Origin: a virus
Virus record (IMG/VR): IMGVR_UViG_3300036768_001879
Coordinates: 3,441-67,440 of that record
Strand: one strand, 5' to 3'
DNA: 64,000 nucleotides
The notes under the pieces: model-generated
Seen by the model: the letters and a program-made list of their open reading frames with translations, nothing else
What the model was told of the DNA's origin: nothing
The model's database searches: none
In this document: positions 2,159 to 64,000 of the stretch, piece by piece
How positions within the stretch are numbered: the stretch's first letter is position 1
Layout of the letters: each line of letters starts with the position of its first letter
Position numbers and translations under genes: made by a program

Positions 2159-3754
2159 ATGATCCATCGCAAGAAAGACAGAACCGGCAGCACGCCGATT
2201 GATCGCAGGCTGCTGCAGGACAGTTCGATCAGTTTTGAAACGCTCGGAATGCTCTGCTACCTGCTCTCGCACGCCGACACGTGGGAGATCACGCTGCACG
2301 ACATTGAGCGGCAGGGCGGGATCAAAGCCGCGCGGCGACAGCGCATGATGCGCGAAGCCGAGCAGGCGGGATATCTGGAACGGCGCGAATGCCGCACCAG
2401 CGGCAAAGTGACGTACCGGACAGACCTGCACGAAATCCCGCTCCCGCCCGAACGCCGCACCAGCCTCCGCTGCAATCATCGCCCTCAGTCAAAACCGCCG
2501 CAACCGGCCCGACCGCAAACGGAAAAACCGTCTGCGGCAAAGCGCACCGCAGACGGAAAACCCGCTTGCGGCAAGCCCGCACGCAGCCGCACCGCAGACG
2601 GAAAACCCGCTTGCGGCAACGCAGCCAGCGCGCCCGTCAAAGCATTCAAAACAAAGCGAAAAGAGGTGTCACCGCAAGCGGAAAACCCGTTTGCGGTGCA
2701 GCCGCAGCCGGGCGTACCGCAAGCGGGTAAACCGCAAGCGGGTAAACCGCAGACGGAAAAACCGCAGACGGAAAACCCGCTTGCGGCTATAAATAAATTA
2801 CATGCATGTGAATTACATACATGTGAATTACATGAAAGTGAAAAACATGAAATACCAGAAACATGGGATCAAAAGAGAGAAGTGAAAACAAAACATGCCG
2901 ACCCGCCAGCAGACGCGGACGGGCTGCCGCCCGCCGCGCAGCCTGAAGATTCGCTCTCTGCGCCGTCCGGCTGCGGCTGCACAACGCCGGAAAGCGCAGC
3001 AGGCGCGCCCGGCAACGAGCAGGCAGCGCCGGAGAGCGAACTGACGCGCGCGCGCTGGACCTGCGCCGCCCAACCCGCGCTGCCGAGCCTGCAGCCGGGC
3101 CTGAGCGCGAACCGTGAACTGCATCTCTGGCACAGGTGGTGCGCCAGCTGCTTCGGGCATTACTGGCAGCAGCGGTATCAGCCGCAGCGCTGGCGCTGCC
3201 GCGAAGCCGACGCCGTGCGCCTGCACGAACTGATCCGGGCGCATCAGGAGATCACCTTCCGCGACTGGCGCATCGCTATTCGCAATTACCTCGCCACGCC
3301 GCAGGCGCGCCACACGCTGGCCGATCTGGCGCAGCGTTACGAAGTCTTTCGCGCGCACCCGCTCAATCAGTTCAAGCAGCCTCAGGCCGGATACCAGGAG
3401 CGTCCGACGGACGGGCTGACGCCCGCCGAGATCGCGCAGCTTTTTGAGCACCGCGAACGTCAGGCGCTGCGCTACAACGCCACCTGCCGGATTCAGGAAC
3501 TGATGCGCCGCCGCCTGCTCTACAACGAGGCTCCCGACGAGTGGGAGGTCGAATGGTGCAACCGGCTGCTGGCGGGCGAGTTCGATCCGCTGCAGTACCC
3601 GCGCGCCTACCAGTACCGCCGCGAATACTACGCGCGGCGCGGGCTGTCCGTGCCCGCACAGACGCCGGAAGCGCAGGCGCAGCTGGCGCAGATTCTCGCG
3701 GCAGCCGGTCAGGCCGGGCTGCCGGTGATGGAGGTTTCGCAATGGCAGAACTGA
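2159..3754 (+). CDS. phage replication initiator (N-terminal wHTH, replisome organiser type)
   Basis: LQDSSISFETLGMLCYLLSHADTWEI motif typical of phage HTH replication proteins; internal iterons; precedes primase-helicase. Confidence 0.75.
   Translation: MIHRKKDRTGSTPIDRRLLQDSSISFETLGMLCYLLSHADTWEITLHDIERQGGIKAARRQRMMREAEQAGYLERRECRTSGKVTYRTDLHEIPLPPERRTSLRCNHRPQSKPPQPARPQTEKPSAAKRTADGKPACGKPARSRTADGKPACGNAASAPVKAFKTKRKEVSPQAENPFAVQPQPGVPQAGKPQAGKPQTEKPQTENPLAAINKLHACELHTCELHESEKHEIPETWDQKREVKTKHADPPADADGLPPAAQPEDSLSAPSGCGCTTPESAAGAPGNEQAAPESELTRARWTCAAQPALPSLQPGLSANRELHLWHRWCASCFGHYWQQRYQPQRWRCREADAVRLHELIRAHQEITFRDWRIAIRNYLATPQARHTLADLAQRYEVFRAHPLNQFKQPQAGYQERPTDGLTPAEIAQLFEHRERQALRYNATCRIQELMRRRLLYNEAPDEWEVEWCNRLLAGEFDPLQYPRAYQYRREYYARRGLSVPAQTPEAQAQLAQILAAAGQAGLPVMEVSQWQN
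2513..2870. repeat. putative replication origin: iterons plus AT-rich unwinding element
   Basis: Repeated CCGCA(A/G)(A/G)CGG / CCGCTTGCGG units at 15-bp period (2513-2786), then AT-rich 15-bp repeats TTACAT(G/A)CATGTGAA. Confidence 0.7.
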
Positions 3755-6144: not shown

Positions 6145-6591
6145 ATGAACAAAGCCATCATCAGTTGCGACGGGCTGGCCGAGCCGGCCAATCCGGGCCA
6201 CGCTATCTGGGCCTTCGTCGCCATCCCGCCCGATGACCGCGCCGTCATCACGCAGGCCGGTTACATCGGCCCGGAGATCAGCAACAACGTGGCCGAATAC
6301 TACGCCGTCGGCATGGCGCTCAAATATGCCAGCGATCAGCAGTGGCAGGCCGTCGAGGTGTGGACGGACAGCCTGGTGGTGGTCAGGCAGGTGACGGGCG
6401 ACTGGCGGTGCAATCGCGATTCGCTCATCAGGCTGCGCGACCGGATCAGAACGCTCAGTCAGCAGTTCGCGCAGTTCAGTCTGCAGTGGCATCCGCGCGA
6501 GCAGAACCACCTGCCCGACCGCGCCTGCCGCGAACTTTACAAATCAATGTTCGGCGCATATCCGCCCGAACGCGAAAGGAAACGCTCATGA
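6145..6591 (+). CDS. rnhA: ribonuclease HI family protein
   Basis: DG..NPG, SNNVAEYYA, TDSLVVVRQVTGDW, WHPREQN..D motifs of RNase HI. Confidence 0.85.
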   Translation: MNKAIISCDGLAEPANPGHAIWAFVAIPPDDRAVITQAGYIGPEISNNVAEYYAVGMALKYASDQQWQAVEVWTDSLVVVRQVTGDWRCNRDSLIRLRDRIRTLSQQFAQFSLQWHPREQNHLPDRACRELYKSMFGAYPPERERKRS

Positions 6592-8162
6592 CAACTCTGG
6601 CCGCAAACAAACCCATGAAGATTCAGCTGATTGACCACAAACTGATTGTGCCGTCGGCTGACAATCCGCGCCGCAGCTGCGACGAGCGCAGGCTGCAGGA
6701 ACTGGCCGCCTCGATCCGCGAGCACGGCATTCTGGAACCGCTGCTCGTGCGCCCGGCGCAGAAGAAACAGCGATTTGAAATCATCAGCGGCGAACGGCGC
6801 TGGCGCGCTGCCGCTATTGCCCGGCTCAGGGCGCTGCCCTGCGTCGTGATGAGCGCCGACGATGAGCGCGCCTTTCAGATGCGCATCATCGAAAACCTTC
6901 AGCGCGAGGACGTTCATCCGCTCGACGAGGCGCAGGCTTTCGCTGAAATGATGACGCGCTTCGGGCGCGAAGCCGGGGAGATCGCTGCCGGCATCGGGCG
7001 CTCGACCGGCTACGTCTGGCGTCGCCGCCAGCTGGTTGAACTGCCCGAGCGGGCGCAGCAGGCGCTGCGTGACGGCTCGCTGCACCTGAGCGTGGCTGAA
7101 CTGCTCGTCACCGTTGCGCCGGAACTGCGCGACGAGGCGCTCGGCGATCTGATGATGCCGCACGTGACCACGCTCTCAGCCGCCCGCCGCATCATCGAAG
7201 CGCGCTACCGCACGCAGCTCAAGGGCGCGCCCTTCGATGTGCGCGACGCGCAGCTGTACCCTGAAGCCGGTTCCTGCGCGCGCTGCCCGCGCAAGTCCGG
7301 CAACGCGCCGCTGCTCTTTGAGGATGAGGAACAGCCCAAAAACATCTGCCTCAATCCGGCCTGCTTTGCCGAGAAAGTCAGACGCGCCACCGGGCGCGCG
7401 CTGGAACGCGCCCGCGCTGAAGGCGTGCAGGTGATTGAAGATGAAAAGACGTTGCGGCAGATTTTTCCTTACACTGGCAGCAGCGTTTCGACCGCGTGCG
7501 CGTTCGTTGACGCCGACGCAACCTGCCCGGATGACATTGAGCGGACGTGGCGGCAGGTGATCGGCGACCGCCTGCCGCTCTACGCCGCAGTTGACCCGGC
7601 GGGCCGGGCGCACTTTCTCTACAAACGGCGCGAGGCGCGCCGTGCTGTCGAGGAACTGCTGCCGCCGCGCCCGGACCCGGCAGTGAATTTTCAGGATGAT
7701 GACGCCGCCGACGCCGCTGCGGAGCCCAGCCCGTCCGAACTGCGCGCTGAAGCCGCGCAGCGGCTGGTAGGTTGCATTGCGCAGCGCGCGCTTGAGAACG
7801 GCATCCAGAAGGACTGGTGGCGCGCAATGTGCCGCCTGGCGCTGAAGGACTTCTTCAGCGGCAACCTTCAGGCGCTGGCCGCGCGTTACGACCTCAAACC
7901 GGGCGATGCCGCGGAAGCCGAAACCATGCTCAGCGATCTGCTGGAAACCATGACCGTGGCGCAGCTGCAGGCGTTTCTGCTCGTGCTGATTGTGGCGAGC
8001 AGTTTCGAGCGGTATCGCTATCAGGCCGGGCGGCTCGAAGATATTGAAGCCGAAGCCCGCGACCTGTTCGGCTTTGATCTGAAGACCATCTGCGAGCAGG
8101 TGACGAAGGAACGCACCGCGTCCGCCCGCGCGGCGCGCAAAACAGCGGAGGCGGCGCGATGA
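6588..8162 (+). CDS. parB: ParB/RepB/Spo0J family protein
   Basis: NPR, ELAASIREHGILEPLLVRP, ISGERRWRAA, IENLQREDV, HTH; CARCP..CLNPACF zinc site; ATGA overlap. Confidence 0.85.
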   Translation: MTTLAANKPMKIQLIDHKLIVPSADNPRRSCDERRLQELAASIREHGILEPLLVRPAQKKQRFEIISGERRWRAAAIARLRALPCVVMSADDERAFQMRIIENLQREDVHPLDEAQAFAEMMTRFGREAGEIAAGIGRSTGYVWRRRQLVELPERAQQALRDGSLHLSVAELLVTVAPELRDEALGDLMMPHVTTLSAARRIIEARYRTQLKGAPFDVRDAQLYPEAGSCARCPRKSGNAPLLFEDEEQPKNICLNPACFAEKVRRATGRALERARAEGVQVIEDEKTLRQIFPYTGSSVSTACAFVDADATCPDDIERTWRQVIGDRLPLYAAVDPAGRAHFLYKRREARRAVEELLPPRPDPAVNFQDDDAADAAAEPSPSELRAEAAQRLVGCIAQRALENGIQKDWWRAMCRLALKDFFSGNLQALAARYDLKPGDAAEAETMLSDLLETMTVAQLQAFLLVLIVASSFERYRYQAGRLEDIEAEARDLFGFDLKTICEQVTKERTASARAARKTAEAAR

Positions 8163-14634: not shown

Positions 14635-15040
14635 ACCGGATCCTTCGAGCGAGGGCGCGCGCATCACTGAACGCCTGCCGGACGGCACGCTCATTGTGCT
14701 CGCTGGCGGACAGGAGTACCGCGCGCTGCCCGCCGCCCGGATGCGCGAACTCGACAACGCGCTTGAGGACAAGCGCCTGCTGGCGGAAAAGGTGGCGCTG
14801 CTTGAGGCGCAGCTGGCCGAGCGCCGCCGCGCCGCTGAACTCGACGCGCGCGAGCGCCAGCTGTACGCCAGCCAGCTGGCCGCCCGCGAACGCGAAACGG
14901 CGCTCTGGCGGCAGCTGTTTGAGAAGGCCGACAAGGCGGCTCGCCCTGGCCGCGTGCGCCGCTTTCTGGATCATCCGGTCGCGGCCATCCTGCTGGAAGC
15001 TGTCGTCCCGGTGGTTACGCTGGCCCTCAGAATGCGTTGA
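14585..15040 (+). CDS. putative outer spanin-like protein
   Basis: Overlaps previous gene; Cys-containing signal-like N-terminus, coiled coil, hydrophobic C-terminus; start uncertain. Confidence 0.4.
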   Translation: MLMCCVVTCSAQNARAEPDPSSEGARITERLPDGTLIVLAGGQEYRALPAARMRELDNALEDKRLLAEKVALLEAQLAERRRAAELDARERQLYASQLAARERETALWRQLFEKADKAARPGRVRRFLDHPVAAILLEAVVPVVTLALRMR

Positions 15041-15060
15041 AAACACAACCGGAGACTCCC

Positions 15061-15801
15061 ATGACTGAAAAAATGAAAACCGCCCGCGCCGCCGAACCAG
15101 CCCGGCTCAGTATCGAATACCTGCCGCTGCGCCGAATCCGCCCGCTCCCGCGCAACGCCAAACAGCACGACCTCGAAGCGATCATCGCTTCAATCAGCGA
15201 GTTCGGCTTTCTTGACCCTATCGGCATCAACAAGCGCACCGGACACGACCTTGACGGCAATGGCCGCCTGGAGGCGCTGCAGGAGATGGAGCGGCGCGGA
15301 CTGCCGCCGCCGCGCGGCATTGTGGCGGGCCGCAACGGCTGGGAAGCGCCCACCGTGGCGGGCATCAGCCTTGACGCAGCCCGCGAAGCCCGCGCCGCGC
15401 TGGCCCTGAACCGCACCAATGAACTGGGCGGTTTCGACGAGCAGCTGCTGCTTGAGATCCTGCGCGAATGCGAGCAGGAAGGCGGACTGGAAGCCACCGG
15501 CTACACGCCGGATTTCATCAACAGCCTGATGATGCGTCTTGACCCGCCCGCCGCCGCGCCCGCCGCCGCCGCGCCGGCAGTGTCGCTGGATCTGGTCAGC
15601 GCGCCGCCATCGCAGGTGCGGATGGTGCAGTTGTTCTACACCGCCGAAACGCAGCCCGTTCTGCTCAGTCGCGCTGCGGATCTGATTGACGCCGGTGCGG
15701 TGCTCGATGATGCGGGCGCGCCCGTGCGCGACCTCTCGGAACTCGTCTTCGCTTTGATTCGCAATGCTCACGCTCAACTTGAAACCGGTGCTGACCGATG
15801 A
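15061..15801 (+). CDS. ParB/Srx-like N-terminal domain protein heading the DNA-modification operon
   Basis: RNAKQHD..IIASISEFGFLDPI..LDGNGRLEAL..LALNRTNELGGFD. Confidence 0.75.
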   Translation: MTEKMKTARAAEPARLSIEYLPLRRIRPLPRNAKQHDLEAIIASISEFGFLDPIGINKRTGHDLDGNGRLEALQEMERRGLPPPRGIVAGRNGWEAPTVAGISLDAAREARAALALNRTNELGGFDEQLLLEILRECEQEGGLEATGYTPDFINSLMMRLDPPAAAPAAAAPAVSLDLVSAPPSQVRMVQLFYTAETQPVLLSRAADLIDAGAVLDDAGAPVRDLSELVFALIRNAHAQLETGADR

Positions 15802-25343: not shown

Positions 25344-28300
25344 ATGAATCCCGTTACCGTCAACGTTCAGAATGCTGCGCTGCCCGTCACCATTGGCGTG
25401 CCGTTTGCGCAGTCCGAAAACCTGCTCTCAACCGCCGCGCTGCGCGTCAGAAACCCGTCCGGCACGGTCATTGCGGGCAGCGGCGCGTTTGAAATCCTCG
25501 CCCGCTGGGGCGGGCTCAAAACCGACACCGCCAGGCCGATAATGATCGCGCTCGTGTCGTTCAAGCCTTCAACCGGCGTCGCCGGTAACTACACCATTGA
25601 CGACAGCAACGCCAGCTTCACGCCCGCGCCGATCACCGTCACCAGCAATCCAGGCGACTACCGCGTCCAGAACGGCGCGATTGATGTGCGGATCAGCAAG
25701 ACGTCCACCGATCTGCTCACCTCTTTTCAGATCAGCGGCAGCGAGCAGCTGGCTGCCGGATCAAAGCCGCGCCTGAACGCGGTGGCGTCGGCCAGCGCCA
25801 TCAGGACCACCGGCGTTGCTGACGTCGGCACCAACACGATCACCGTCACTTCGACCACCGGCCTGTCGGTCGGCACGCAGATCAGGCTCAAATGGGACGG
25901 CCCGCTGCTCTACATTCAGGGCGGCGCGGTCGTGGCGAGCGGCGATTACGGTTTCTACTCCAACTCGCTGACGCCCAAGCGCACCTTCTGGATCAATCGC
26001 GGCGGCGCAAATCAGGAATCGCTGACGGCGGATTTCGTCTATCCCGGCTCAGGCACCTCAGAGTGGTACTACGTCAGCGCGCCTGCCAATTCGCACAGCG
26101 CCGGCGAACTGGTCGAGGACAAGTCGCTGCTCGACGACTTCAACGCCAGCGGCGCTTACACAATCAACGCCATCAACGGCAACACGCTCACGCTCAATCG
26201 CAATCTCGGCGTGCGCGTGATCGAGAACACGCAGCTTGAAGTGCAGGGCGGCGGCACCGGCCCGGTGACTGCGCCCTTCCAGCCCGCCAGCTGCAGCGTT
26301 GAACGGCAAACCGATAATTACGTGGTCATCAGGCAGGTCGGCCACTTCACCAGCAACGTCAATCCGCTGGTTGAAGTCACCGTGCGCTGGCACATCTACA
26401 ACGGAATGTCGTGGCTGCGCGCGCAGGTGCGCCTGAACAACTACTCCGCCGACACCAGTGTCACTGCCACCGATGCGCCCTTTGATGAACTGCGCATGGA
26501 CGTGCCAACGGCCAGCGCCGCGTCGGGCAGCGATGCGGTGTCGGACAACGCTACAGCCGTCAGCCGCGTCAACGCCGGAACCACAACCGTGACGCTCTCG
26601 GCGGGTTCGTTCCAGATTTCGGTGCCGGAGTTTGCCGAGAAGTACCCGAAGAGCATCGCGGGCGATGCGGGCGGTTTTCACTTCGGCATCTTTCCGGCTG
26701 CGACAAATCAGCAGCTGCCCGGCGACCGCGCCATCTCGCACGAATTCTATCTCGGCAATTCAACCGCCACTCCAGCCACGCTCACCAGCCGCCCGACCAA
26801 CTGCGCGCTGCAGCCTTCGTATGTCGTCAACACGCAGGCGCACCGCGCCGTGACAACCGTGGCGCAGACTTACACGGCGGCGCAGTTCGGCGGCGACTCC
26901 GAGATGGCTGAAGCCGCCAACCGCAACGAGGATGCGCTGGCCGTGATCTATGACGTCTCAAAGGCGGTCGCCTACGGCTCGCAGCCCGCGCAGTCGGCAA
27001 AGGAGTTTCGCAATCGCGGCGAGTACGGCGACGGTTACGGCTGGACGATCTTCGGCACCTTCCCCTGGCAGGACAATCCGCGCTGCTACAACCACTACGA
27101 CACGCAGTTTCACACGCTCGTGCAGTATCTGCGCACGGGCGATCTGCGCGCGCTGCAGCTCGGCTCCGAGTGCGCCCGCTACATGGCCGATTACGGGATG
27201 ATCCAGTCGCGCATCTTCGGCGGCGGCAACCCGTACAACCAGTATCAGGGGCTGGCGCGCTTTGAGGATGAAGACCGGCGCGGGCCGGGCTTTCTCTCGC
27301 ACACGTGGCACGAAGGGCTGTGGCTCTACTGGGCCGTCACCGGCGATCAGGCGGTGTTTGACTCAGCCATGCTGACCATTGAAGGCAGGGATCAGACCGG
27401 CGCTACGCAACCCGGCTGCCTGAAGGCTGCCGACTGGTATCCGGCTGGCACGGGCCTCTATCCCGGCTCCTACTACGGACACGGCGCGAGCTTCAACATC
27501 TGGACGGGCAATGACGGCACGCGCTGGACCGGCTGGCCCATCCTCGGCCTGATGGCTGCTTATCGCTACACCGGGCGCAGCGACCTGCTCACGCTGGCCG
27601 GGCAGTATGCCAGCTGCTTCACGCAGACTGAAGCGGCGCAGGGCAATCACGGCTACTTCATTCAGGACGGCAGCTTCGCTACAGCCAATTCGGCTGATCC
27701 GCCGGGCAACGCGCCGAGCTTCATTCAGTACGGCTACACGCTGATCGGCATGATCGAGTACTGGAAGCAGACCGGCGACCAGACGGTGCGCGATTACATC
27801 AGCCGCGTCGGGCAGATGCTGCTCAAGGGCGATTCGCAGGCGGCGCAGGCGCGCAAGGATAACGCGCTGAGCGGCGGCGTGAGCTTCGCCGGACAGTATC
27901 TGGCTATTGAAGGCAACTACTTCTGGTGGCCGCTCGCGCAGACGACGCTCGCCTCCGGCATCAACAACACGGTGACTTCGATCACGCTCACCGACGCCTC
28001 GAAATTTCCGTTCTGGGGCTCAATCGCCATTGATGACGGCATCAACATCGAATACTGCACGGTCAGCAATCGCAGCGGCAACACGCTCACTGTCGCGCGC
28101 GGCAAGTACGGCTCGACGGCGCGCACGTGGAGCGCGGGCGTGACGGTCTACGTGCAGGCGTGGGACGGCGACGGGCCGACGAGCGGGCGCGCCATTGACT
28201 ACCTGCCCTGCATCAGCACGGCGGCCAAAATTACCGGCGACACCGGACTGCAGAACCTCGCCAAACGCATCTTCAAGGACACGGCCTTCTATTTCGGGCA

Positions 28301-30698
28301 GGGCGGGCCGCTGCTCAACCCGGCTGTGCGGTTCCCGATCAATCTGCGCACGGACGGTTTTCCGGGCAGTTCGATCAAGAACTGGGGGCAGCGCGCCTAC
28401 GGCGTCGAGCAGTATCTGGCCGATGTGCTGGCCAATCCGGTGCCGAGCCTTTCATCAATCAGCCCGAATACGAAGACAGCCGGTGATCCGCAGTTCACGC
28501 TCACGGTCAACGGGCTGAACTTCATCAGCACTTCAGCGGTGCGCGTCGGCGGCAGCGACCGCACGACGACCTTCATTTCAGCCACGCAGCTGCAGGCGAC
28601 GATTCCGGCCTCGGACGTTGCCGCGCCGGGCACGCTGCAGATTACGGTCTTCAATCCGGGGCCGGGCGGCGGCACCTCGAACGCCGTCACTCTGACGGTC
28701 AACGCGGGCGCGGGCGCGCCCACGATCAGCAGCCTGTCGCCTGCGTCGGCAGTGGCGGGCGGCGCGCAGTTCACGCTCACCGTCAATGGCGCGAATTACC
28801 AGAACGGCGCAGTAGTACGGTGGAACGGCTCGAACCGCACGACGACCTTTGTTTCGGCCACGCAGCTGCAGGCCACCATCCCTGCTACCGACATTGCTTC
28901 GCCCGGCTCGGCTACGGTCACGGTGCAGAACCCGGACGCACAGATCAGCAACGGCGCTACCTTTACGATCACCGCGCCAGCGCCCACGATCAGCAGCCTG
29001 TCGCCCGCGTCGGCTACAGCCGGTGGCGCGCAGTTCACGCTCACGGTCAACGGCTCGAACTTCCAGAGCGGCTCGACCGTGCGCTGGAACGGCTCAAACC
29101 GCACGACGACCTTTGTGTCCTCGACGCAGCTGCAGGCGACGATTCTGGCCGCTGATATTGCTTCGCCCGGTTCGGCTACGGTTACGGTTGTTAATCCCGA
29201 CAACCAGGTCAGCAACGGCGCGACGTTCACCATCAACAGCGCTTCCGCGCCCACGATCAGCAGCCTGTCGCCCGCGTCAGCGGTGGCGGGCGGCGCGCAG
29301 TTCACGCTCACCGTCAATGGCGCGAATTACCAGAACGGCGCAGTAGTACGGTGGAACGGCTCGAACCGCACGACGACCTTTGTTTCGGCCACGCAGCTGC
29401 AGGCCACCATCCCTGCTACTGACATTGCCTCGCCCGGCTCGGCTACGGTTACGGTGCAAAACCCGGACGCGCAGATCAGCAACGGCGCAACGTTCACCAT
29501 CAACGCCGCCAACAATCCGGTGCCGGTGCTCAACGGCATTTCGCCTTCAGCGGCTTCAGCGGGCGGGCCGCAGTTCACGCTGACGCTCAATGGGTCGAGT
29601 TTTATTTCTTCCAGTCAGGCCAGGTGGAACGGCCAGCCGCTGACCACGACCTTCGTTTCAACCACGCAGCTGACAGCGGTTGTTCCGGCTTCGCTGATCG
29701 CGGTGCCGGGCAGCGCGACCGTGACAGTCTTCAACCCAACGCCGGGCGGCGGAACGTCAGCCGGGCGGATATTCACGATTTCGGGAGGCCAGAGTATGCC
29801 GCCACCAGGGATCACTTCGCTCTCGCCTTCGCAGGTGGTCATCAACAGCGGTTCGTTTACGCTCGTGGTTACGGGCGGGGATTTCGTTTCGGGCATTGCG
29901 GGCAAGATTCAGAACGTGCAGCGCCCGACCACCTTCGTCAGCGAATCGCAGTGCAACATTGCGGTGCAGAACGCCGACATTCAGACGCTCGGCCCGCACG
30001 ATGTGGTCGTTGTCAATCCGGACGGTCAGGCGAGCAACGTCGTGCAGTTTCAGGTAGTCAATCCTTCAGGGCCGACAATCTACGGGCTGTCGCCGTCGAG
30101 CGCGCCGGAAGGCACGCAGGGGCTGACGCTCGTGGTCACGGGCGTCAACTTCGCTTCGGGCGCAGCGGTCAGAGTCAACGGGCAGGCGCGTTCGACGAGC
30201 TTCGTCAGCAGCACACAGCTGCGGGCGCAGCTCACAACAGCCGACCTGCAGACGCCCGGCGTGCTCAATATCACGGTCGCCAATCCGAACAACGACGTCT
30301 CTCCGGCTGTCGGCTTCACGGTGATTGCGGTCAACCGCTTTGCGCCCACGCCCACCATCAGGCCGAAACTTGAAACCATCTACCTTGAAACGGGCGACAA
30401 GTTCAGCGCCCGGCGCGTCTTCCGGCGCGGCTCGGACATTCTGGATCTGACCGGCTGCAAGGCCGAGTTCGAGGTCAAACGTTCGCGCACCGCGCCCGCC
30501 ACCGATGCGCCGCTCCTGCTGCTGACGTCGGACGCGGGCGACATTGCGCTCGACCTGAACGCGGGCAGCATGACGGTCAACGCCAGCGAACTGACCATCA
30601 ATCAGCAGCAGTGGCGGCTCGGGTGGTATCGCTGGCGCGTCATTACCGCTGCCGGCGAACACGTCACGCTGCTGCACGGCGAAATCTGGAGGCGCTGA
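25344..30698 (+). CDS. large virion adhesin: YetA/PcRGLX-like lyase-fold domain + 7 IPT/TIG repeats
   Basis: PVTIGVPF N-terminus, NHYD, SHTWHEGL, RWTGWP barrel motifs; seven P(T/S)ISSLSP..FTLTVNG.NF repeats; C-terminal DLTGC..adaptor domain. Confidence 0.7.
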   Translation: MNPVTVNVQNAALPVTIGVPFAQSENLLSTAALRVRNPSGTVIAGSGAFEILARWGGLKTDTARPIMIALVSFKPSTGVAGNYTIDDSNASFTPAPITVTSNPGDYRVQNGAIDVRISKTSTDLLTSFQISGSEQLAAGSKPRLNAVASASAIRTTGVADVGTNTITVTSTTGLSVGTQIRLKWDGPLLYIQGGAVVASGDYGFYSNSLTPKRTFWINRGGANQESLTADFVYPGSGTSEWYYVSAPANSHSAGELVEDKSLLDDFNASGAYTINAINGNTLTLNRNLGVRVIENTQLEVQGGGTGPVTAPFQPASCSVERQTDNYVVIRQVGHFTSNVNPLVEVTVRWHIYNGMSWLRAQVRLNNYSADTSVTATDAPFDELRMDVPTASAASGSDAVSDNATAVSRVNAGTTTVTLSAGSFQISVPEFAEKYPKSIAGDAGGFHFGIFPAATNQQLPGDRAISHEFYLGNSTATPATLTSRPTNCALQPSYVVNTQAHRAVTTVAQTYTAAQFGGDSEMAEAANRNEDALAVIYDVSKAVAYGSQPAQSAKEFRNRGEYGDGYGWTIFGTFPWQDNPRCYNHYDTQFHTLVQYLRTGDLRALQLGSECARYMADYGMIQSRIFGGGNPYNQYQGLARFEDEDRRGPGFLSHTWHEGLWLYWAVTGDQAVFDSAMLTIEGRDQTGATQPGCLKAADWYPAGTGLYPGSYYGHGASFNIWTGNDGTRWTGWPILGLMAAYRYTGRSDLLTLAGQYASCFTQTEAAQGNHGYFIQDGSFATANSADPPGNAPSFIQYGYTLIGMIEYWKQTGDQTVRDYISRVGQMLLKGDSQAAQARKDNALSGGVSFAGQYLAIEGNYFWWPLAQTTLASGINNTVTSITLTDASKFPFWGSIAIDDGINIEYCTVSNRSGNTLTVARGKYGSTARTWSAGVTVYVQAWDGDGPTSGRAIDYLPCISTAAKITGDTGLQNLAKRIFKDTAFYFGQGGPLLNPAVRFPINLRTDGFPGSSIKNWGQRAYGVEQYLADVLANPVPSLSSISPNTKTAGDPQFTLTVNGLNFISTSAVRVGGSDRTTTFISATQLQATIPASDVAAPGTLQITVFNPGPGGGTSNAVTLTVNAGAGAPTISSLSPASAVAGGAQFTLTVNGANYQNGAVVRWNGSNRTTTFVSATQLQATIPATDIASPGSATVTVQNPDAQISNGATFTITAPAPTISSLSPASATAGGAQFTLTVNGSNFQSGSTVRWNGSNRTTTFVSSTQLQATILAADIASPGSATVTVVNPDNQVSNGATFTINSASAPTISSLSPASAVAGGAQFTLTVNGANYQNGAVVRWNGSNRTTTFVSATQLQATIPATDIASPGSATVTVQNPDAQISNGATFTINAANNPVPVLNGISPSAASAGGPQFTLTLNGSSFISSSQARWNGQPLTTTFVSTTQLTAVVPASLIAVPGSATVTVFNPTPGGGTSAGRIFTISGGQSMPPPGITSLSPSQVVINSGSFTLVVTGGDFVSGIAGKIQNVQRPTTFVSESQCNIAVQNADIQTLGPHDVVVVNPDGQASNVVQFQVVNPSGPTIYGLSPSSAPEGTQGLTLVVTGVNFASGAAVRVNGQARSTSFVSSTQLRAQLTTADLQTPGVLNITVANPNNDVSPAVGFTVIAVNRFAPTPTIRPKLETIYLETGDKFSARRVFRRGSDILDLTGCKAEFEVKRSRTAPATDAPLLLLTSDAGDIALDLNAGSMTVNASELTINQQQWRLGWYRWRVITAAGEHVTLLHGEIWRR
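28716..29510 (+). repeat. three tandem ~265-bp IPT/TIG-coding repeats
   Basis: GCGCCCACGATCAGCAGCCTGTCGCC at 28716, 28980 and 29247; copies 1 and 3 nearly identical. Confidence 0.85.
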
Positions 30699-57321: not shown

Positions 57322-57972
57322 ATGACCAATACCAACGAATATGGAGCGCTGATCCGGGTGCCGGAGTGGGCGCTGCTCCTGATGCAGGAGCTTGAGCAGG
57401 CCGGCGCCTGGACGACCGGCATTGAACACGTCGGCTCGCGCGGCGGCTTTCAGGCCGTCAATATCGCCTGCTATGCTGCTGACGATGCGCGCGAGCTGGC
57501 CGTGGTGCAGGTGCGCGAAGCCTTCAAGCGCAAGGCTTCGCACTGGCTGCGCGTCAGGAAGAACTACTTCCTGATCGGGCGCAACGAGAACGGGCGCGCC
57601 TTTGCGCACGCCATTCCCTCGCCTCGTCGTTTCACTGCCGACGCCGTGGAATTTGCGCTGTGCAGCATCTGGAGATGCACGCCGCGCCAGCTTGAGCGCG
57701 TGGTGCGCAACGGCGACGTGGGCTTTGTTCCGGCGCGACGGCCCGCCGATCTTGAGCCGATTGACTTCCCGGTCGCGCTGGCCGAATCGCACCTGGTGCG
57801 CGGGCGGCTGTTCTTCTCGCCCTCGCGCGGCGAACTCTACGCCGAGGGCGAAGCCGAGATCCGGCACCTGAAGGAACAGCACGCACCGGCGCGCATCAGC
57901 AGCGGTTTTTATGCCGTGCGGGCAGGGTTCCGCGCGGCAACGTGGAACTTCAGCCGGCAGACGGCTGATTGA
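57322..57972 (+). CDS. hypothetical early protein
   Basis: AGGAG RBS, 216 aa. Confidence 0.65.
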   Translation: MTNTNEYGALIRVPEWALLLMQELEQAGAWTTGIEHVGSRGGFQAVNIACYAADDARELAVVQVREAFKRKASHWLRVRKNYFLIGRNENGRAFAHAIPSPRRFTADAVEFALCSIWRCTPRQLERVVRNGDVGFVPARRPADLEPIDFPVALAESHLVRGRLFFSPSRGELYAEGEAEIRHLKEQHAPARISSGFYAVRAGFRAATWNFSRQTAD

Positions 57973-57985
57973 AAGGAGAACGAAA

Positions 57986-58732
57986 ATGGCAATCGAATGG
58001 ACATGGAATGATGGCCTTAGCGCAAGAAGTCGTCTGTCCGCCTGTCTGGTCGTCACGGCAGACGGCGAGGTTCACCGATTTGTCGGGAAGGATATTCCGG
58101 GCACGGTGAAAATCTTGAACGAGAAGTTCGAGAAAAACGGTAAGTGGAGCAACACCACTTACTATTGCCTCAGCGCCGACGGCACAGCCGTCATCTCCTG
58201 GAAACAGGACTGGGAGAACGGCCTGTTCTGGCCGCAGTCAAGCTGGCAGGAAGCCATCGAGTGGGTGCGCTCGCAGGCCCCACTGGCTTCGCCCGCCAGC
58301 GTGGAAAGGCTCATCCGCGAGGAGTGGCCGAAAGCCGCTCAGAAATTCGACGAGAACGCGGCGGCGTTCTCGCAAATGAGCCAGCGCCCGACCCGGCAGC
58401 GCTACCTGCTGAACAGCGCGGTCATTACCGCGCCGGGCAGCTACGAATACGTCCTGCTGGATCAGGACGCGGCGCGCGACTGGCTGATGGACGGGGAGTT
58501 CATCAGCACCTGCGGGTACGCCGAGACGGCGCAGGTGCTGGAAACGTTGACCGGCGTACCTGTCCCGGTCAACCGCCAGACGATCCGGATGGAGCCGGGC
58601 GATGAGGCTCTGGTGTTCCGGCTGGCATTCCAGCCCGGCCAGGCGCGCATCAACCCGGGCGACAAGGGCGCGCTGACGCCCGAATTCGTGCGCGAGAACT
58701 GCGAGTTCGGAATCCTCAGACGAACCCGCTGA
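57986..58732 (+). CDS. fusion of an unknown N-terminal domain with a C-terminal DUF1874/AcrIII-1-like ring-nuclease domain
   Basis: YLLNS..FISTCGYAETAQVL..TGVPVPVNR..IRMEPGDEALVFRL matches the STIV B116/AcrIII-1 family pattern. Confidence 0.72.
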   Translation: MAIEWTWNDGLSARSRLSACLVVTADGEVHRFVGKDIPGTVKILNEKFEKNGKWSNTTYYCLSADGTAVISWKQDWENGLFWPQSSWQEAIEWVRSQAPLASPASVERLIREEWPKAAQKFDENAAAFSQMSQRPTRQRYLLNSAVITAPGSYEYVLLDQDAARDWLMDGEFISTCGYAETAQVLETLTGVPVPVNRQTIRMEPGDEALVFRLAFQPGQARINPGDKGALTPEFVRENCEFGILRRTR

Positions 58733-58820
58733 ACGCGCCGCTGACGGCTGGAAGTGGTTTCGGATTGCCCGTTTGTTGATTATAGTCAACAACGCGACGG
58801 GCAGACGAAACGGAGGCTGC

Positions 58821-59195
58821 ATGAAAACGGAACTGATGCCTGTCTTCGGACGCCACAGGGCGCTGCGCTGGGAGCGCGCGCCCTCGGGCGAACTGCTGAC
58901 GAACGTGCCGCACAGCGTCCGGCATCATTCGCCGGACGGCTTTGAGATCGGCTACGCCGGTTCAGGCCCGGCTGATCTGGCGCTCAACGCGCTGGCCAGC
59001 CTGTTTCCGGCGCGCCGGTCGCGCCAGTGCGTGGAGTGCTTTGACGGGCGCGTGAGCGCGACCGCCTGGCGGCTGCACCAGCAGTTCAAGTCTGATTTTC
59101 TGATCCGCGCCGACCGGCAGCGCGGCGAGATCGCCTGGGAGCGCATTCTCGCGTGGCTGGAACGGCACATCTTCGCCGGAGAAGAACGCTCATGA
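58821..59195 (+). CDS. DUF6166-like protein
   Basis: HHSPDGFEIGYAGSGPADLAL, HQQFK motifs. Confidence 0.75.
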   Translation: MKTELMPVFGRHRALRWERAPSGELLTNVPHSVRHHSPDGFEIGYAGSGPADLALNALASLFPARRSRQCVECFDGRVSATAWRLHQQFKSDFLIRADRQRGEIAWERILAWLERHIFAGEERS

Positions 59196-59481: not shown

Positions 59482-60984
59482 ATGATTGAACAGTACCGCA
59501 GAGCGCGGCGCGCCGGGACGCCGCTCATCGCCATCACTACGCCCGACCCGGAAGCCACGATGCAGGCGGTGGCGGGCGACGACCAGCAGCCCGTCATCCA
59601 GTGGGACATCTGCAACGGCTGGCGCGCCCGCAACGCTGCCGCTCAGACCGTGCTGCGCCAGATCAGCGCGGGCAACGATCTGCAGATGATGACCGCCAAC
59701 CCGGCTGAGATGGTCATGCTGGCTGCGCAACTGCCCGCGCAGACCACGCTCTTTGTTTTGAACGCGCACCGCTACCTGACCGCCGACAACACTCCGACCT
59801 CTGCCGGGTTCGCGCAGGGGCTGTGGAACCTGCGCGATCAGTACAAGGCGGCGGGCGCGGCGGTGGTGCTGCTCGCGCCGCAGCTGACGCTGCCCGTCGA
59901 ACTGCAGCAGGACGTGCTGGCGCTTGACGAGCCGCTGCCGGATGAAGCCGCGTTGCGCGCGGTCATCAGCGCGCTGTGCGAAAGCAACGAACTGCCCTGC
60001 CCTGACGCGGCCACGCTCGACCGCGCGGTGGATGCGCTGCGCGGGCTGGCGGCGTTTCCGGCTGAACAGGTCACGGCCATGTCGCTCGCGCGCAGCGGGC
60101 TGAAGGTGGACGAACTGTGGGAGCGCAAGCGGCAGATGATTGACGCCACGCCGGGTCTGGCGGTCTGGCGCGGCGGCGAAACGTTTGCCGACGTGGGCGG
60201 CTCGGCGGTGGTCAAGGACTTCCTGACGCGCATCCTGACTGGCCGGGCGCGTCCGCGCGTGATCGTCTTCATTGACGAGATCGAGAAGGCGATGGGAGGC
60301 GCGCAGGGCGACACATCGGGCGTCAGCCAGGACTTTCTCGGCACGCTGCTGACCGAGATGCAGGACACGCGCGCCGTTGGTTCAATCTTCATCGGCCCGC
60401 CCGGTTCAGGCAAGTCGGCGGTAGCGAAGGCGGCGGGCGCTGAGGGCGGCATCCCGACGATTGCGCTCGATCTGTCCGGAATGAAAGCCTCGCTGGTGGG
60501 CGAGAGCGAACAGCGGCTGCGCCAGGCGCTGAAGGTGATTCGCGCCGTGGGCAGCAATCAGGCGCTCTGGCTGGCGACGTGCAACCGAATCGCCTCGCTG
60601 CCGCCCGAACTGCGGCGGCGCTTCACGCTCGGCACGTTCTTCTTCGATCTGCCTTCGGAAGAGGAGCGCCGGGCGATCTGGGAAATCTATCTCAGAAAAT
60701 ACAACCTGCCAGCGCCCGAAGGCGTGAACGACGACGGCTGGACGGGCGCTGAGATCCGGCAGTGCTGCGACATTGCCTGGCGGCTCGATGTGCCGCTGCG
60801 CCAGGCAGCGCAGTTTGTTGTGCCGGTGGCGCGCGCGGCGGCTGAGGAGATCGAACAGCTGCGCCGTCAGGCGGCTGGCCGGTTTCTGTCGGCCTCCTTC
60901 CCCGGCACATACGAATACCAGACGAGCGCGCCCGCGCCAGCGGCTCGCTCAAACAAGAGCCGTTCAGTCGGCCTGGAGGATTAG
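59482..60984 (+). CDS. Ycf46-like AAA+ ATPase (internally permuted)
   Basis: ETFADVGG, FIDEIEK, GPPGSGKS, SLVGESE, ATCN..LPPELRRRF..FFDLP, WTGAEI. Confidence 0.85.
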   Translation: MIEQYRRARRAGTPLIAITTPDPEATMQAVAGDDQQPVIQWDICNGWRARNAAAQTVLRQISAGNDLQMMTANPAEMVMLAAQLPAQTTLFVLNAHRYLTADNTPTSAGFAQGLWNLRDQYKAAGAAVVLLAPQLTLPVELQQDVLALDEPLPDEAALRAVISALCESNELPCPDAATLDRAVDALRGLAAFPAEQVTAMSLARSGLKVDELWERKRQMIDATPGLAVWRGGETFADVGGSAVVKDFLTRILTGRARPRVIVFIDEIEKAMGGAQGDTSGVSQDFLGTLLTEMQDTRAVGSIFIGPPGSGKSAVAKAAGAEGGIPTIALDLSGMKASLVGESEQRLRQALKVIRAVGSNQALWLATCNRIASLPPELRRRFTLGTFFFDLPSEEERRAIWEIYLRKYNLPAPEGVNDDGWTGAEIRQCCDIAWRLDVPLRQAAQFVVPVARAAAEEIEQLRRQAAGRFLSASFPGTYEYQTSAPAPAARSNKSRSVGLED

Positions 60985-60987
60985 GTT

Positions 60988-61311
60988 ATGCCCTGCTGGG
61001 AACGCAGAGAGATCACGGTGCAGCTGGACGCGGCTGACCCGGCGCTGTTGCGCGCCGGGCTGCGGGCTGCCGGATTTGAACTCGAAGAGCGCGGCGACAC
61101 GCTCTACGTCAGGCGCGCCGGGCGCATCAGCATCGGCGCAGCGGCCCGCATCACGGGCGGGCAGGTGATCGTTGACGAAGCCGACCGGGAGATTGTCAAC
61201 GAGATCACACGCGCCTACAGCGCTGAAGTCGTCCGGGCAACGGCCCGGCGCTTCGGCTGGACGGCGCAGGAAACCGGGCCGAACCGGCTCAAACTGGGCA
61301 GGAGGTTCTGA
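60988..61311 (+). CDS. DUF1257/Ycf35-like protein
   Basis: [27 protein letters not shown]; adjacent to the Ycf46-like ATPase. Confidence 0.55.
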
Positions 61312-61568
61312 TGGCTGTCTGCAAATACTGCGGGCAGGAGATGCTCCGCGCGCCGACCTGTCATGCCAACACGGTCATTGAATATCCTGGCGGCGAAAAG
61401 CTCCCGGCTGTTCGCTGGGACGGCCCGGCAGCCGGCAGCTGTCCGGACTGCGCGGTCGAGCCGGGCGGTTTCCATCATCCGGGCTGCGACTGCGAACAAT
61501 GCCCGCGCTGCGGCGGGCAGCTGCTCAGTTGCGGGTGCCTTGACGAGGAGGAAGATGATGACGCCTGA
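61311..61568 (+). CDS. Cys/His-rich zinc-binding protein
   Basis: [27 protein letters not shown]. Confidence 0.7.
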
Positions 61569-62184: not shown

Positions 62185-62397
62185 ATGAACGAGAAATCAA
62201 TCACGGTGGAAATCCTGCCCGACGGGCGGGTGAAAGTCGAGACGGGCGACCTGTCCGGCCCGCAGCACATGAAGGCCGACCAGTTTCTGCGCGAGATGGC
62301 GCGACTGCTCGGCGGCGACGTGACCGTCGAGAAGCTCAACCACCACCACCACCATCACCACCATCACAATCACAATCACAACAAGCGCAAAAACTAA
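62185..62397 (+). CDS. DUF2997-like protein with poly-His tail
   Basis: ITVEILPDGRVKVET..LARLLGG; C-terminal HHHHHHHHHNHNHN. Confidence 0.65.
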   Translation: MNEKSITVEILPDGRVKVETGDLSGPQHMKADQFLREMARLLGGDVTVEKLNHHHHHHHHHNHNHNKRKN

Positions 62398-62425: not shown

Positions 62426-63376
62426 ATGTCCAGAGCCACCGACAAACAACTCGCTTCAGTACCCGCCACTGCCGCGCGCATCAATCAGGACACGGTCTGC
62501 ATTGATCTGCAGATCACTTCGCCGGGCGTCCGGCGCAAGCTCGATGTGAAGCGGCTCAACGTTGAGGCCGACCGCGAGATGATTCACGCGGGAAAAGACA
62601 TTATCGAATCGGCGGCGATGCAGCCGATCTGGAACCGCGACGGGCGCATGCGCGACCGGCTGAAATCGCGCGCCGTGCCGGTGTCAATGCTGCGGCCCGG
62701 CCTGTACCTGGTGCCGGTGCAGCTGATCCCGCAGATCGAGCGGGAGATGGAGCAGTACCAGAGCGAGCGCGAAGAACTGATTGACGCCTTCTTCGCGCGC
62801 TACCCGGAACTGATTGCAGCCGCGCGGGAGCGGCTTGAGCCGCAGGGGCTGTTCGATGCAGACGATTATCCGCCCGCTGAACAGCTGCGCCGCGCCTTCG
62901 CGGTCAGGCTGCGTTACCTGACTTTCAACGTTCCGGCAGCGCTCGAACAGGTCAACCGCAGGCTGTTCGAGCGCGAGCGCGAGCGCGCCGAGCGCGAATG
63001 GCAGGAAGCGGTCACGGAAATCCGCGAAGCGCTGCGGCTCGGCTTTGCCGACCTGGTCGGGAAGATGGTCAACCGGCTGGGCGAAACAAAGAACGGCACG
63101 CGCAAGGCGCTGCGCGACGACGCCCTGGAGGAGATGAACGACTTCCTGGCGATCTTCGAGGCGCGCAACCTGACCAACGACGCCGAACTGTCGCGGCTGG
63201 TGACGGCGGCGCGCAACGTGATGAACGGGCTGAGCGTGGACGCGCTGCGCGGCAAAAACAGCGCAGCGCTGCGCCAGGACGTGCGCCGCGACTTCGAGCA
63301 GCTGGGCGCGAAGCTGGAAACGCTCGTCAAACCTGCCGGTCGCCGGGTGCGCTTTGATGATGACGATGAACAGTAA
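62426..63376 (+). CDS. DUF3150-like protein
   Basis: GLYLVP, FFARYP, DDYPPAEQLRRAF, RNLTNDAEL. Confidence 0.6.
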   Translation: MSRATDKQLASVPATAARINQDTVCIDLQITSPGVRRKLDVKRLNVEADREMIHAGKDIIESAAMQPIWNRDGRMRDRLKSRAVPVSMLRPGLYLVPVQLIPQIEREMEQYQSEREELIDAFFARYPELIAAARERLEPQGLFDADDYPPAEQLRRAFAVRLRYLTFNVPAALEQVNRRLFERERERAEREWQEAVTEIREALRLGFADLVGKMVNRLGETKNGTRKALRDDALEEMNDFLAIFEARNLTNDAELSRLVTAARNVMNGLSVDALRGKNSAALRQDVRRDFEQLGAKLETLVKPAGRRVRFDDDDEQ

Positions 63377-63593
63377 ACCGGTAACAGCCGGGCCGGGCGG
63401 GTGCTGCGATACCCCGCCCGGCCTGACCGAACGCACGCGCCGCCGCTGGTTTGAACTGCGCCCGTCGCAGCGCCGGAGAATTCTGGTCGCGCTGCGGCGC
63501 TACGAAACCGCCTGCGCGATGCTTGATGTTGACCCTGACCGCGAGGAATGGGTTGCCGACGCCATTGCATGGCAGAAAGGACAGGACAGATGA
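63366..63593 (+). CDS. hypothetical protein
   Basis: Coupled ORF between the DUF3150-like and Rad52-like genes. Confidence 0.4.
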   Translation: MNSKPVTAGPGGCCDTPPGLTERTRRRWFELRPSQRRRILVALRRYETACAMLDVDPDREEWVADAIAWQKGQDR

Positions 63594-64000
63594 GTCAGAC
63601 ACAACCTCAAACCAAAGAAGCACCGGCCTTCCGCCGCCCGATCCGCGAGATCATTGCCGACCTGAGCAAGCCGATCCCTGACCGCTTTCTGAAGGAGAAG
63701 ACCATCAAGAACAGCAAGCTGACCTACATTCCGTGGCATTACGCCGTGAAGCTGCTTGACTGGTACGCGCCGGGCTGGTGCTATGAAGTGCGCGACATTA
63801 CGCCCATCGGCGGGCAGACGGTGCTGACCGTGCGGCTGACGATTCCGGCTGCGGAAGGCGACTTCTGGCGCGAGGCCACGGGCATCGAGGAAGACGAAGT
63901 GACCGGCTACGGGGACACTTCGAGCAACGCCGAATCAATGGCGCTGCGGCGCGCTGCGGCCAAGTTCGGGCTGGGGCTGTACCTCTACGAAAAGAAGTAA
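63590..64000 (+). CDS. Rad52/Rad22-family single-strand annealing protein
   Basis: LTYIPW..LLD..APGW, VRLTI, REATG, NAESMALRRAAAKFGLGLYLY. Confidence 0.85.
   Translation: MSQTQPQTKEAPAFRRPIREIIADLSKPIPDRFLKEKTIKNSKLTYIPWHYAVKLLDWYAPGWCYEVRDITPIGGQTVLTVRLTIPAAEGDFWREATGIEEDEVTGYGDTSSNAESMALRRAAAKFGLGLYLYEKK

Follow-up and report, generated by a model that had tools for sequence, protein, structure and literature searches.

A Ycf46/Cdc48-like AAA ATPase family of temperate tailed phages with a probable internal permutation of its catalytic module

Introduction

Can the catalytic motifs of an AAA+ domain change places along the chain without loss of the active site? In AAA+ and related P-loop ATPases the motifs are regarded as having a fixed order (Walker A, Walker B, sensor 1), and annotation profiles presume it. 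The question is raised by a gene at 59482-60984 in a stretch of 64,000 nucleotides (nt), hereafter the window, which covers positions 3,441 to 67,440 of the provirus record IMGVR_UViG_3300036768_001879 of IMG/VR (67,440 bases). A preliminary description of this DNA, made from its letters alone, had pointed out that Walker B precedes Walker A in the encoded protein. The product is read here as a two-module Ycf46/Cdc48-like classical AAA ATPase of a temperate tailed phage, of which the catalytic module is internally and non-cyclically permuted; the probability of this reading is estimated at roughly 0.8. Sequence comparison supports the existence of a classical AAA ATPase lineage in which the internal permutation is conserved and all catalytic residues would be kept. 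Among natural AAA+ proteins it would be the first known to us with Walker B ahead of Walker A, and in those parts of the literature that a full-text search for permuted AAA+ proteins returned, no description of one was found.

Results and discussion

Motif order in the provirus ATPase

The gene occupies a single open reading frame (ORF) of 500 amino acids (aa) and is present in one copy in the window, all genes of which lie on the plus strand. It was divided as follows (positions are those of the window; helices and strands are those of the AlphaFold2 (AF2) model described below).

59482..60984, plus strand: whole ATPase gene, 500 aa, probable two-module Ycf46/Cdc48-like classical AAA protein with an internally permuted catalytic module
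59482..60156, plus strand: N-terminal module, aa 1-225, D1-like alpha/beta domain and helical part
60157..60252, plus strand: linker and helix alpha0 of the catalytic module, aa 226-257, VGG..K.FL, AF2 helix 242-252
60253..60378, plus strand: relocated unit, aa 258-299, beta3 with Walker B (D265, E266), pore-loop-2-like DTSGVS, alpha3 (LLTEMQD)
60379..60561, plus strand: Walker A unit, aa 300-360, beta1, P-loop (G305, G308, K311, S312), alpha1, beta2, pore loop 1 (LVGESE), alpha2
60562..60657, plus strand: beta4, arginine cluster and beta5, aa 361-392, sensor 1 T366 and N368, PPELRRRF with R378-380, AF2 strands 361-367 and 385-387
60658..60891, plus strand: helical lid domain, aa 393-470, WTGAEIRQCC, AF2 helices 393-464

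The relocated unit starts with PRVIVFIDEIEK at aa 258 (nt 60253), and VIVFIDEIEK occupies aa 260-269 (VIVFIDE, nt 60259-60279). Walker A, GPPGSGKS, is found at aa 305-312 (nt 60394-60417), which puts Walker B 46 residues ahead of the Walker A lysine. The segment LVGESEQRLRQAL at aa 338-350 contains the pore-loop-like LVGESE (aa 338-343), and ATCN (aa 365-368) and PPELRRRF (aa 374-381) are both downstream of Walker A. Each motif named in the preliminary description was therefore present in this frame where it had been placed, and the order Walker B, Walker A, sensor 1 was confirmed. Its proposal that the beta3-alpha3 block precedes the beta1-alpha2 block with the catalytic motifs intact was found to hold for the whole family. 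The peptide RAVGS does occur at both junctions (aa 297-301, nt 60370, and aa 354-358, nt 60541), as had been noted, but its suggested role as a mark of the rearrangement did not stand: a word of at least four residues common to both junctions was seen in only 2 of 269 relatives, and a recombination scar was rejected in favour of coincidence.

Conservation of the order among relatives

A word-indexed protein search gave 2,329 proteins at an expectation value (E) of <= 0.001 among 8,000 scored candidates, and the best 120 relatives of that search were 50-73% identical over 94-100% of the query. An exhaustive search of 1.84 billion cluster representatives yielded 7,058 matches at E <= 0.001, 3,607 at <= 1e-10 and 1,246 at <= 1e-30; among 150 matches listed from it, 140 aligned in one full-length stretch and 10 in two stretches. 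At the DNA level a relative was encoded in 201 of 227 matched stretches of IMG/VR and in 224 of 359 matched stretches of species-representative genomes, and 80 loci of each set were kept.

Walker B stood ahead of Walker A in 269/269 protein relatives and in 160/160 related loci, and the conventional linear AAA order did not occur among them; this was also the outcome of the search for homologues that had been suggested beforehand. The Walker-B-then-Walker-A pattern fitted 156 of the loci directly, and the other 4 showed the same order on inspection. The spacing from the DE of Walker B to the Walker A lysine was 43-52 residues in 418 of 420 sequences. The cultured Tunturiibacter phage Tunturi_3 carries a member with the permuted order as well (gp103, annotated as 'ATPase', 39% identity). 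Hosts assigned to the loci were mostly Acidobacteriota (Bryobacteraceae, Terriglobia), next to Myxococcales, Gemmatimonadetes, Nitrospirota, Planctomycetota, Chthonomonas and others.

Hidden Markov models (HMMs) of the Walker A unit and of the Walker B unit were built from 120 normal-order proteins, which are relatives of gp65 of Aeromonas phage HJ05 and were checked for normal order. With these block HMMs Walker A was placed before Walker B in 120/120 normal-order proteins and Walker B before Walker A in 255/269 relatives of the window ATPase. In the remaining 14 the Walker B HMM stayed under threshold, yet the alignment has hhhhDE.EK upstream of the P-loop. In the window ATPase itself the Walker B HMM matched aa 261-298 and the Walker A HMM aa 303-356.

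The HJ05 gp65 group (OQ594355.1 and 119 relatives; phrog_8638) has the same length class, N-terminal module, alpha0, Walker units, sensor 1, arginine cluster and lid as the permuted family, but differs from it in having Walker A and then Walker B in 120/120. It also retains the usual linker ahead of beta1, with PKG just before the strand, where the permuted family has the Walker B unit instead. The main hhalign alignment of the two families ran from query 2-477 on template 12-526 (probability 100%, E 8e-50, 430 columns, 27% identity) and left out template 351-392, which is the Walker B unit of the normal-order family. A second alignment placed query 259-299 on exactly this template stretch (probability 97.5%, E 6e-12, 37% identity). 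The alpha0 region of the permuted ATPase was aligned with the IGGLENLK helix of the normal-order relatives.

Profile alignment had been proposed as a check, with two out-of-order matches as the expected result, and these were obtained. Pfam PF00004 matched the ATPase at E 1.9e-17 and 64.3 bits (cut-off 21.2), split into two stretches, the best of which put aa 302-354 on profile positions 2-54. With phmmer against the PDB, residues 521-578 of Cdc48 D2 (the Walker A part) were aligned to query 298-355 and Cdc48 577-629 (the Walker B part) to query 255-304. The match to phrog_8638 (E 3e-50) came in four stretches. Profiles of the PF00004 type give split, weakened matches here, and a family of this kind would point to a blind spot for homology-based annotation. 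A reading as a defence gene was not adopted; NCBIfam and PADLOC gave weak partial matches (IteA/IetA, CDC48, TRIP13) far under their cut-offs.

Catalytic residues and likely activity

Among the 269 relatives the Walker B residues D265 and E266 were conserved in 266 and 269, the Walker A residues K311 and S/T312 in all 269, and N368, R380 and R379 in 269, 269 and 256, respectively. The sensor-1 and arginine-finger roles of N368, R379 and R380 were assigned by alignment to p97 and HJ05. A strict count with the pattern G..G.GK[ST] had matched only 29 of the first 120 relatives; the Walker A motif is not missing from the others, in which the second glycine is Ala, Ser or Thr. Inteins that carry homing-endonuclease domains were found in four family members, within the P-loop of P0159 and P0184 and after the sensor-1 Asn of P0121 and P0211, and insertion at these places is counted as a sign of the importance of the catalytic site. 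The homing endonucleases are of the LAGLIDADG or HNH type, and the normal-order protein P0274 also bears an intein. Judged from its residues, the ATPase is probably an active, ring-forming, ATP-driven protein remodeller.

Predicted fold

The AF2 model of the ATPase, built on 91 family members, had a predicted local distance difference test score (pLDDT) of 94.1 and a predicted template modelling score of 0.87, and the order of strands and helices along its chain was that of the permuted layout. The relocated unit forms a strand (260-264) and a helix (281-295), the Walker A unit a strand (299-304), a helix (311-322), a strand (326-329) and a helix (341-357). Most 10-residue blocks of this region reached a pLDDT of >= 95, and the loop block 271-280 alone fell, to 79. 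The AlphaFold check that the preliminary description had called for thus gave a confident model with the permuted order along the chain.

The whole model matched the D1-D2 tandem of p97/Cdc48/NVL in Foldseek (E about 1e-13), and in VIA-align it aligned to p97 D1-D2 (7lmz_C) with Z 19.1 and a root mean square deviation (rmsd) of 4.2 over 398 residues, model 1-468 on chain 212-763. It follows that the N-terminal part is a D1-like module. By sequence this module is without a P-loop and has a conserved TPDP at the equivalent place, in which T20 and P23 are nearly invariant and D22 is invariant, as is P14. D2-only chains aligned from model residue 223-227 onward in VIA-align. The catalytic module was superposed on p97 D2 (3cf0_A) with Z 16.5 and an rmsd of 2.5 A, 203 residues being aligned of the 246 in model range 223-468; those left unaligned are about as many as the relocated unit contains, as would be expected of an aligner bound to the sequence order. 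The lid, in which W420, G422 and I425 are invariant, is covered by the p97 D2 alignment, which extends as far as chain residue 763.

The best structural matches, Cdc48/p97/VAT, NVL/Rix7 and Afg2, have the classical-clade traits in common with the phage ATPase, i.e. the sensor-1 Asn, the arginine cluster and a lid motif of the GAE/GAD type, at an identity of only 13-25%. Unlike proteins of the Cdc48/p97 type, the phage ATPase has an N-terminal module without a P-loop, a relocated Walker B unit and no N domain for ubiquitin adaptors.

Co-evolution of the relocated unit with the catalytic module

Mean-field direct coupling analysis (DCA) was performed on 420 family sequences (effective number about 281-318) for residues 225-470 and 1-400. 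The top pair, V260-G357, joins the start of the relocated strand to the end of alpha2, places that are a few residues apart along the chain in normal-order proteins. Further pairs connected the relocated strand with beta4 (262-363, 264-363, 267-365) and alpha3 with alpha2 (284-343, 288-346, 292-354). For residues 1-400, 22 of the top 100 pairs linked the Walker B unit with residues 299-400 and one linked it with the N-terminal module of 224 residues; in the top 200 there were 36 and 8 such pairs, respectively. These pairs support the normal spatial arrangement without being proof of it, because relatedness inflates the scores and AF2 draws on the same signal.

Proposed rewiring and its origin

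In the proposed arrangement a unit of about 41 residues (beta3 with D265/E266, the loop and alpha3) stands right after alpha0 and ahead of beta1, P-loop, alpha1, beta2, pore loop 1 and alpha2, and alpha2 runs directly into the sensor-1 strand beta4. Only three connections are altered, alpha0 to beta3, alpha3 to beta1 and alpha2 to beta4. The sheet order of AAA+ domains is 5-1-4-3-2. With this order the re-joined strands would be neighbours or near neighbours and the handedness of the crossovers would be kept, and the relocated strand could therefore regain its slot between beta4 and beta2 and the normal nucleotide site be rebuilt. The same proximity and handedness would explain why the rewiring is tolerated.

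The permutation may have had a single origin, for which the simplest route would be that the beta1-to-alpha3 segment was duplicated in tandem and that the leading copy of the Walker A unit and the trailing copy of the Walker B unit were then lost. That the family represents an ancient single-origin lineage of active AAA+ motors wired alpha0-beta3-alpha3-beta1-alpha1-beta2-alpha2-beta4, comprising at least about 1,200 clusters at 50% identity in phages of Acidobacteriota and several other phyla, is a tentative extension, to which somewhat less than an even chance is given.

Non-standard motif order with the active site kept is seen likewise in the circularly permuted GTPases of the YlqF/RsgA type and in the permuted palm of some viral RNA polymerases, an analogy in kind. 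These belong to other folds and families. The GTPases are true circular permutations of the whole domain, and an internally permuted palm in some viral RNA polymerases was reportedly described by Gorbalenya et al. in 2002. In the phage AAA protein a pair of internal segments is swapped with both domain termini in place.

If the arrangement is true, the ASCE core tolerates non-cyclic rewiring, and nature has provided an experiment on folding and on the way in which chain connectivity relays the nucleotide state to the pore loops. As alpha2, which lies behind pore loop 1, would be fused to the sensor-1 strand and alpha3 cut loose, the coupling between nucleotide state, pore loop and subunits may differ from that in the AAA+ rings studied so far. 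The cultured pair of Tunturi_3 and Tunturiibacter psychrotolerans bears a permuted member and makes this testable at the bench.

Alternative readings

Several points weigh against the reading as an active, permuted AAA motor. The second glycine of GxxxxGK[ST] is replaced in 155/269 relatives (Ala 131, Ser 20, Thr 4; the window ATPase keeps Gly), which could lower or alter nucleotide binding, and the aromatic position of pore loop 1 is Leu in 216/269, for which reason substrate threading is not assured. The sheet order 5-1-4-3-2 of the catalytic module was deduced rather than seen in coordinates; the alignments behind AF2 and DCA overlap in content, and with about 300 effective sequences DCA suffers from noise and from confounding by relatedness. 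Both the single origin and the route by duplication and deletion were deduced as well, and the block HMMs detected no intermediate with duplicated Walker units among 389 proteins. Finally, the DUF2997-like label of a partner gene (62185-62397, see below) rests on one of two comparisons, as its family reached only 5.7% with the second DUF2997-type cluster, c9.

The replaced glycine and the Leu in the pore loop would suit a catalytically weak or dead pseudo-ATPase that serves its partner proteins merely as a nucleotide-binding scaffold or switch. However, the Walker A Lys and Ser/Thr, the Walker B Asp-Glu, the sensor-1 Asn and Arg380 vary hardly or not at all, a pattern expected for hydrolysis and not for binding alone, and inteins are inserted at those sites. 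Such a pseudo-ATPase is considered improbable, although it is the best survivor among the alternatives.

Marginally less credit is given to a change of both chain order and fold, i.e. a new sheet order or subunits that swap domains, with the active site altered. In its favour, the chain has three new connections, structure aligners that follow the sequence order cannot locate the relocated unit, and the connection from alpha3 to beta4, which carries inter-subunit signalling in other AAA proteins, is cut. Against this, 203 residues superpose on p97 D2 at 2.5 A, the co-evolving pairs agree with the normal fold in bringing strand 260-267 next to residues 363 and 365 of beta4 and to 353 and 357 at the end of alpha2, and the model is confident over most of the region, apart from the loop 271-280.

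It was also considered that the upstream hhhhDE is structurally part of the N-terminal D1-like module or only resembles a Walker B, which would leave the catalytic module without a true Walker B; a separate upstream AAA module holding IDEIEK had been put forward in the preliminary description as the finding that would overturn the permutation. An N-terminal AAA-like module does exist and the placement of the strand was not seen in coordinates. Nevertheless, residues 259-299 are homologous to the normal-order Walker B unit (97.5%, E 6e-12), alpha0 of the second module stands ahead of hhhhDE, and D2-only structures align from residue 223-227. The couplings of the Walker B unit (22 versus 1 and 36 versus 8) favour the C-terminal module, and only about 4 residues separate alpha2 from beta4, too few to hold a further Walker B strand. 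This alternative is very unlikely.

Assembly error, a chimeric contig, a private rearrangement or a pseudogene in this one provirus, for which it could be said that the window comes from a metagenome-derived provirus record and that the three sequencing runs carrying the stretch may be its own source, has a negligible probability and is refuted by the family-wide conservation of the permuted order in 269/269 relatives from many independent assemblies, in 160/160 loci and in the isolate Tunturi_3, next to an open frame with invariant catalytic residues. Logan contigs of these 3 runs span window positions 59900-60900 whole, with 0 differences and without joints at the junctions, but do not count as independent support because the runs may be the source samples; a further run, X4, contains just a short part of the stretch. 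The earlier judgement that a simple assembly error is unlikely is upheld.

Partner genes of the ATPase

The neighbourhood of the ATPase gene was compared over 81 loci, i.e. the 80 IMG/VR loci and the window. In the window the following genes are found downstream.

60988..61311, plus strand: DUF1257 (Ycf35)-like small partner, 107 aa, by profile comparison
61311..61568, plus strand: Cys-rich ORF, 85 aa, several CxxC-type pairs, between two small partner genes, module membership uncertain
62185..62397, plus strand: DUF2997-like small protein, 70 aa, His-rich tail
62426..63376, plus strand: DUF3150-like helical protein, 316 aa, most constant neighbour of the ATPase

A pair of small proteins, in one of three versions, goes with the ATPase across the loci. 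Pfam recognized DUF2997 in 10/10 members of cluster c2 and 3/8 of c9, and DUF1257 in 6/7 of c8 and 3/10 of c3. The family of 60988-61311, of which the version is present in 32/81 loci, has no Pfam match of its own; it matched the DUF1257-positive neighbour families at 96.0% (E 4.4e-9) and 91.9%, with controls at about 1%. Its N-terminus, Met-Pro-Cys, is nearly invariant, and the c3 version begins with Met-Ser-His in six c3 sequences; such a conserved extreme N-terminus is unusual. The family of 62185-62397, without direct Pfam match, reached 95.3% (E 2e-8) with the DUF2997-positive cluster c2 and 1.3% with the control. It has an invariant His28 where standard DUF2997 has a conserved Cys (G..C), and most members have a His-rich tail of HxHxH repeats. 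His28 and the tail suggest metal binding as a putative property of this protein.

The ORF at 61311-61568 had no match in Pfam, PHROG or PADLOC. Its place is taken in other loci by a CxC...CxH protein (cluster c11), presumably SWIM-like from its appearance, or by a protein with a RASHVEP motif (cluster c5), neither of them with a Pfam match.

The DUF3150-like protein accompanies the ATPase in 78/81 loci. It scored E 3e-4 and 20.6 bits with PF11348, under the cut-off of 24.9, and 2 of 10 relatives reached 22.0 and 24.1 bits. The nearest ESM Atlas clusters are DUF3150-bearing (features 0.97, TM 0.79-0.85), and with the Pfam score under its cut-off the protein is named DUF3150-like only. Its AF2 model (pLDDT 91.7) gave nothing at E <= 0.001 in Foldseek against the PDB, and the best match in VIA-align against 48,161 chains (Z 9.6) was to generic helical bundles, which is uninformative.

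DUF1257 and DUF2997 partners are also encoded downstream of the permuted gp103 of Tunturi_3 (gp102 and gp101) and of the normal-order HJ05 gp65 (gp67 and gp68, respectively). As both have the same partners, the permutation took place inside a conserved functional module. In HJ05 no Pfam family was matched by gp66 and gp69, and gp70 matched Phage_rep_O only; hence no DUF3150-like gene was detected there, PF11348 missing most c1 members too. Flanking genes in other loci encode SNF2 and DEAD helicases, a DnaB-like helicase, primase, Ku, a sigma-factor-like protein and DUF5131, and point to the early, replication and recombination part of phage genomes. Our best guess is that the ATPase would act on or with its DUF1257-like, DUF2997-like and DUF3150-like neighbours as an ATP-driven remodeller. 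A complex prediction of the ATPase with the DUF1257-like and DUF2997-like proteins gave a score of 0.00, which, being without controls, is evidence neither way.

The same three families occur together in cyanobacteria and red-lineage plastids as Ycf46 (AAA), Ycf35 (DUF1257) and DUF2997. A role in CO2 use is ascribed to them; we take these to be cellular genes with the normal motif order, and we know of no DUF3150-like partner of theirs. The phage ATPase belongs to a widespread, uncharacterised module of AAA, DUF1257 (Ycf35) and DUF2997. For cyanobacteria, PMC4284462 lists a gene cluster DUF2997-ycf35-fed7, and joint loss of ycf35 and ycf46 in freshwater red algae is given in PMC5940233. The papers found on DUF1257 and DUF2997 contain gene cluster lists or presence and absence only, a literature search on DUF3150 returned nothing relevant, and neither 'ATPase' nor 'AAA' occurs in the main text of PMC11924767, which deals with the Tunturi phages.

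Other genes of the provirus

The window further encodes a primase-helicase, ParB-like proteins, terminase, portal, protease, capsid, tape measure and tail genes. Five features of the window are listed.

63548..64000 (cut by the window end), plus strand: Rad52/Rad22-type single-strand annealing protein, PF04098, E 9.2e-7, directly after the module
58773..59195, plus strand: DUF6166 protein, PF19663, E 1.2e-11, just upstream of the ATPase gene
57911..58732, plus strand: 273-aa protein, residues 165-239 matching STIV_B116-like PF08960 (E 1.5e-13), PADLOC Csx16 (E 2.1e-15) and phrog_5063
25344..30698, plus strand: 1,784-aa ORF between the terminase and portal genes
6342..8162 and 15037..15801, plus strand: two separate ParB-like proteins in one provirus, by PHROG matches

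STIV_B116-like proteins are presumably the fold family of the viral ring nucleases directed against type III CRISPR (AcrIII-1), and in the 273-aa protein a candidate anti-CRISPR of the phage may be joined to an additional N-terminal part. It is not conserved beside the ATPase in other loci. The 1,784-aa ORF had no informative PHROG match, only phrog_28393 being obtained at E 4.2e-7 over residues 1311-1356. The second of the ParB-like proteins, at 15037-15801, also matches the DNA methyltransferase PHROG phrog_498 over residues 10-172.

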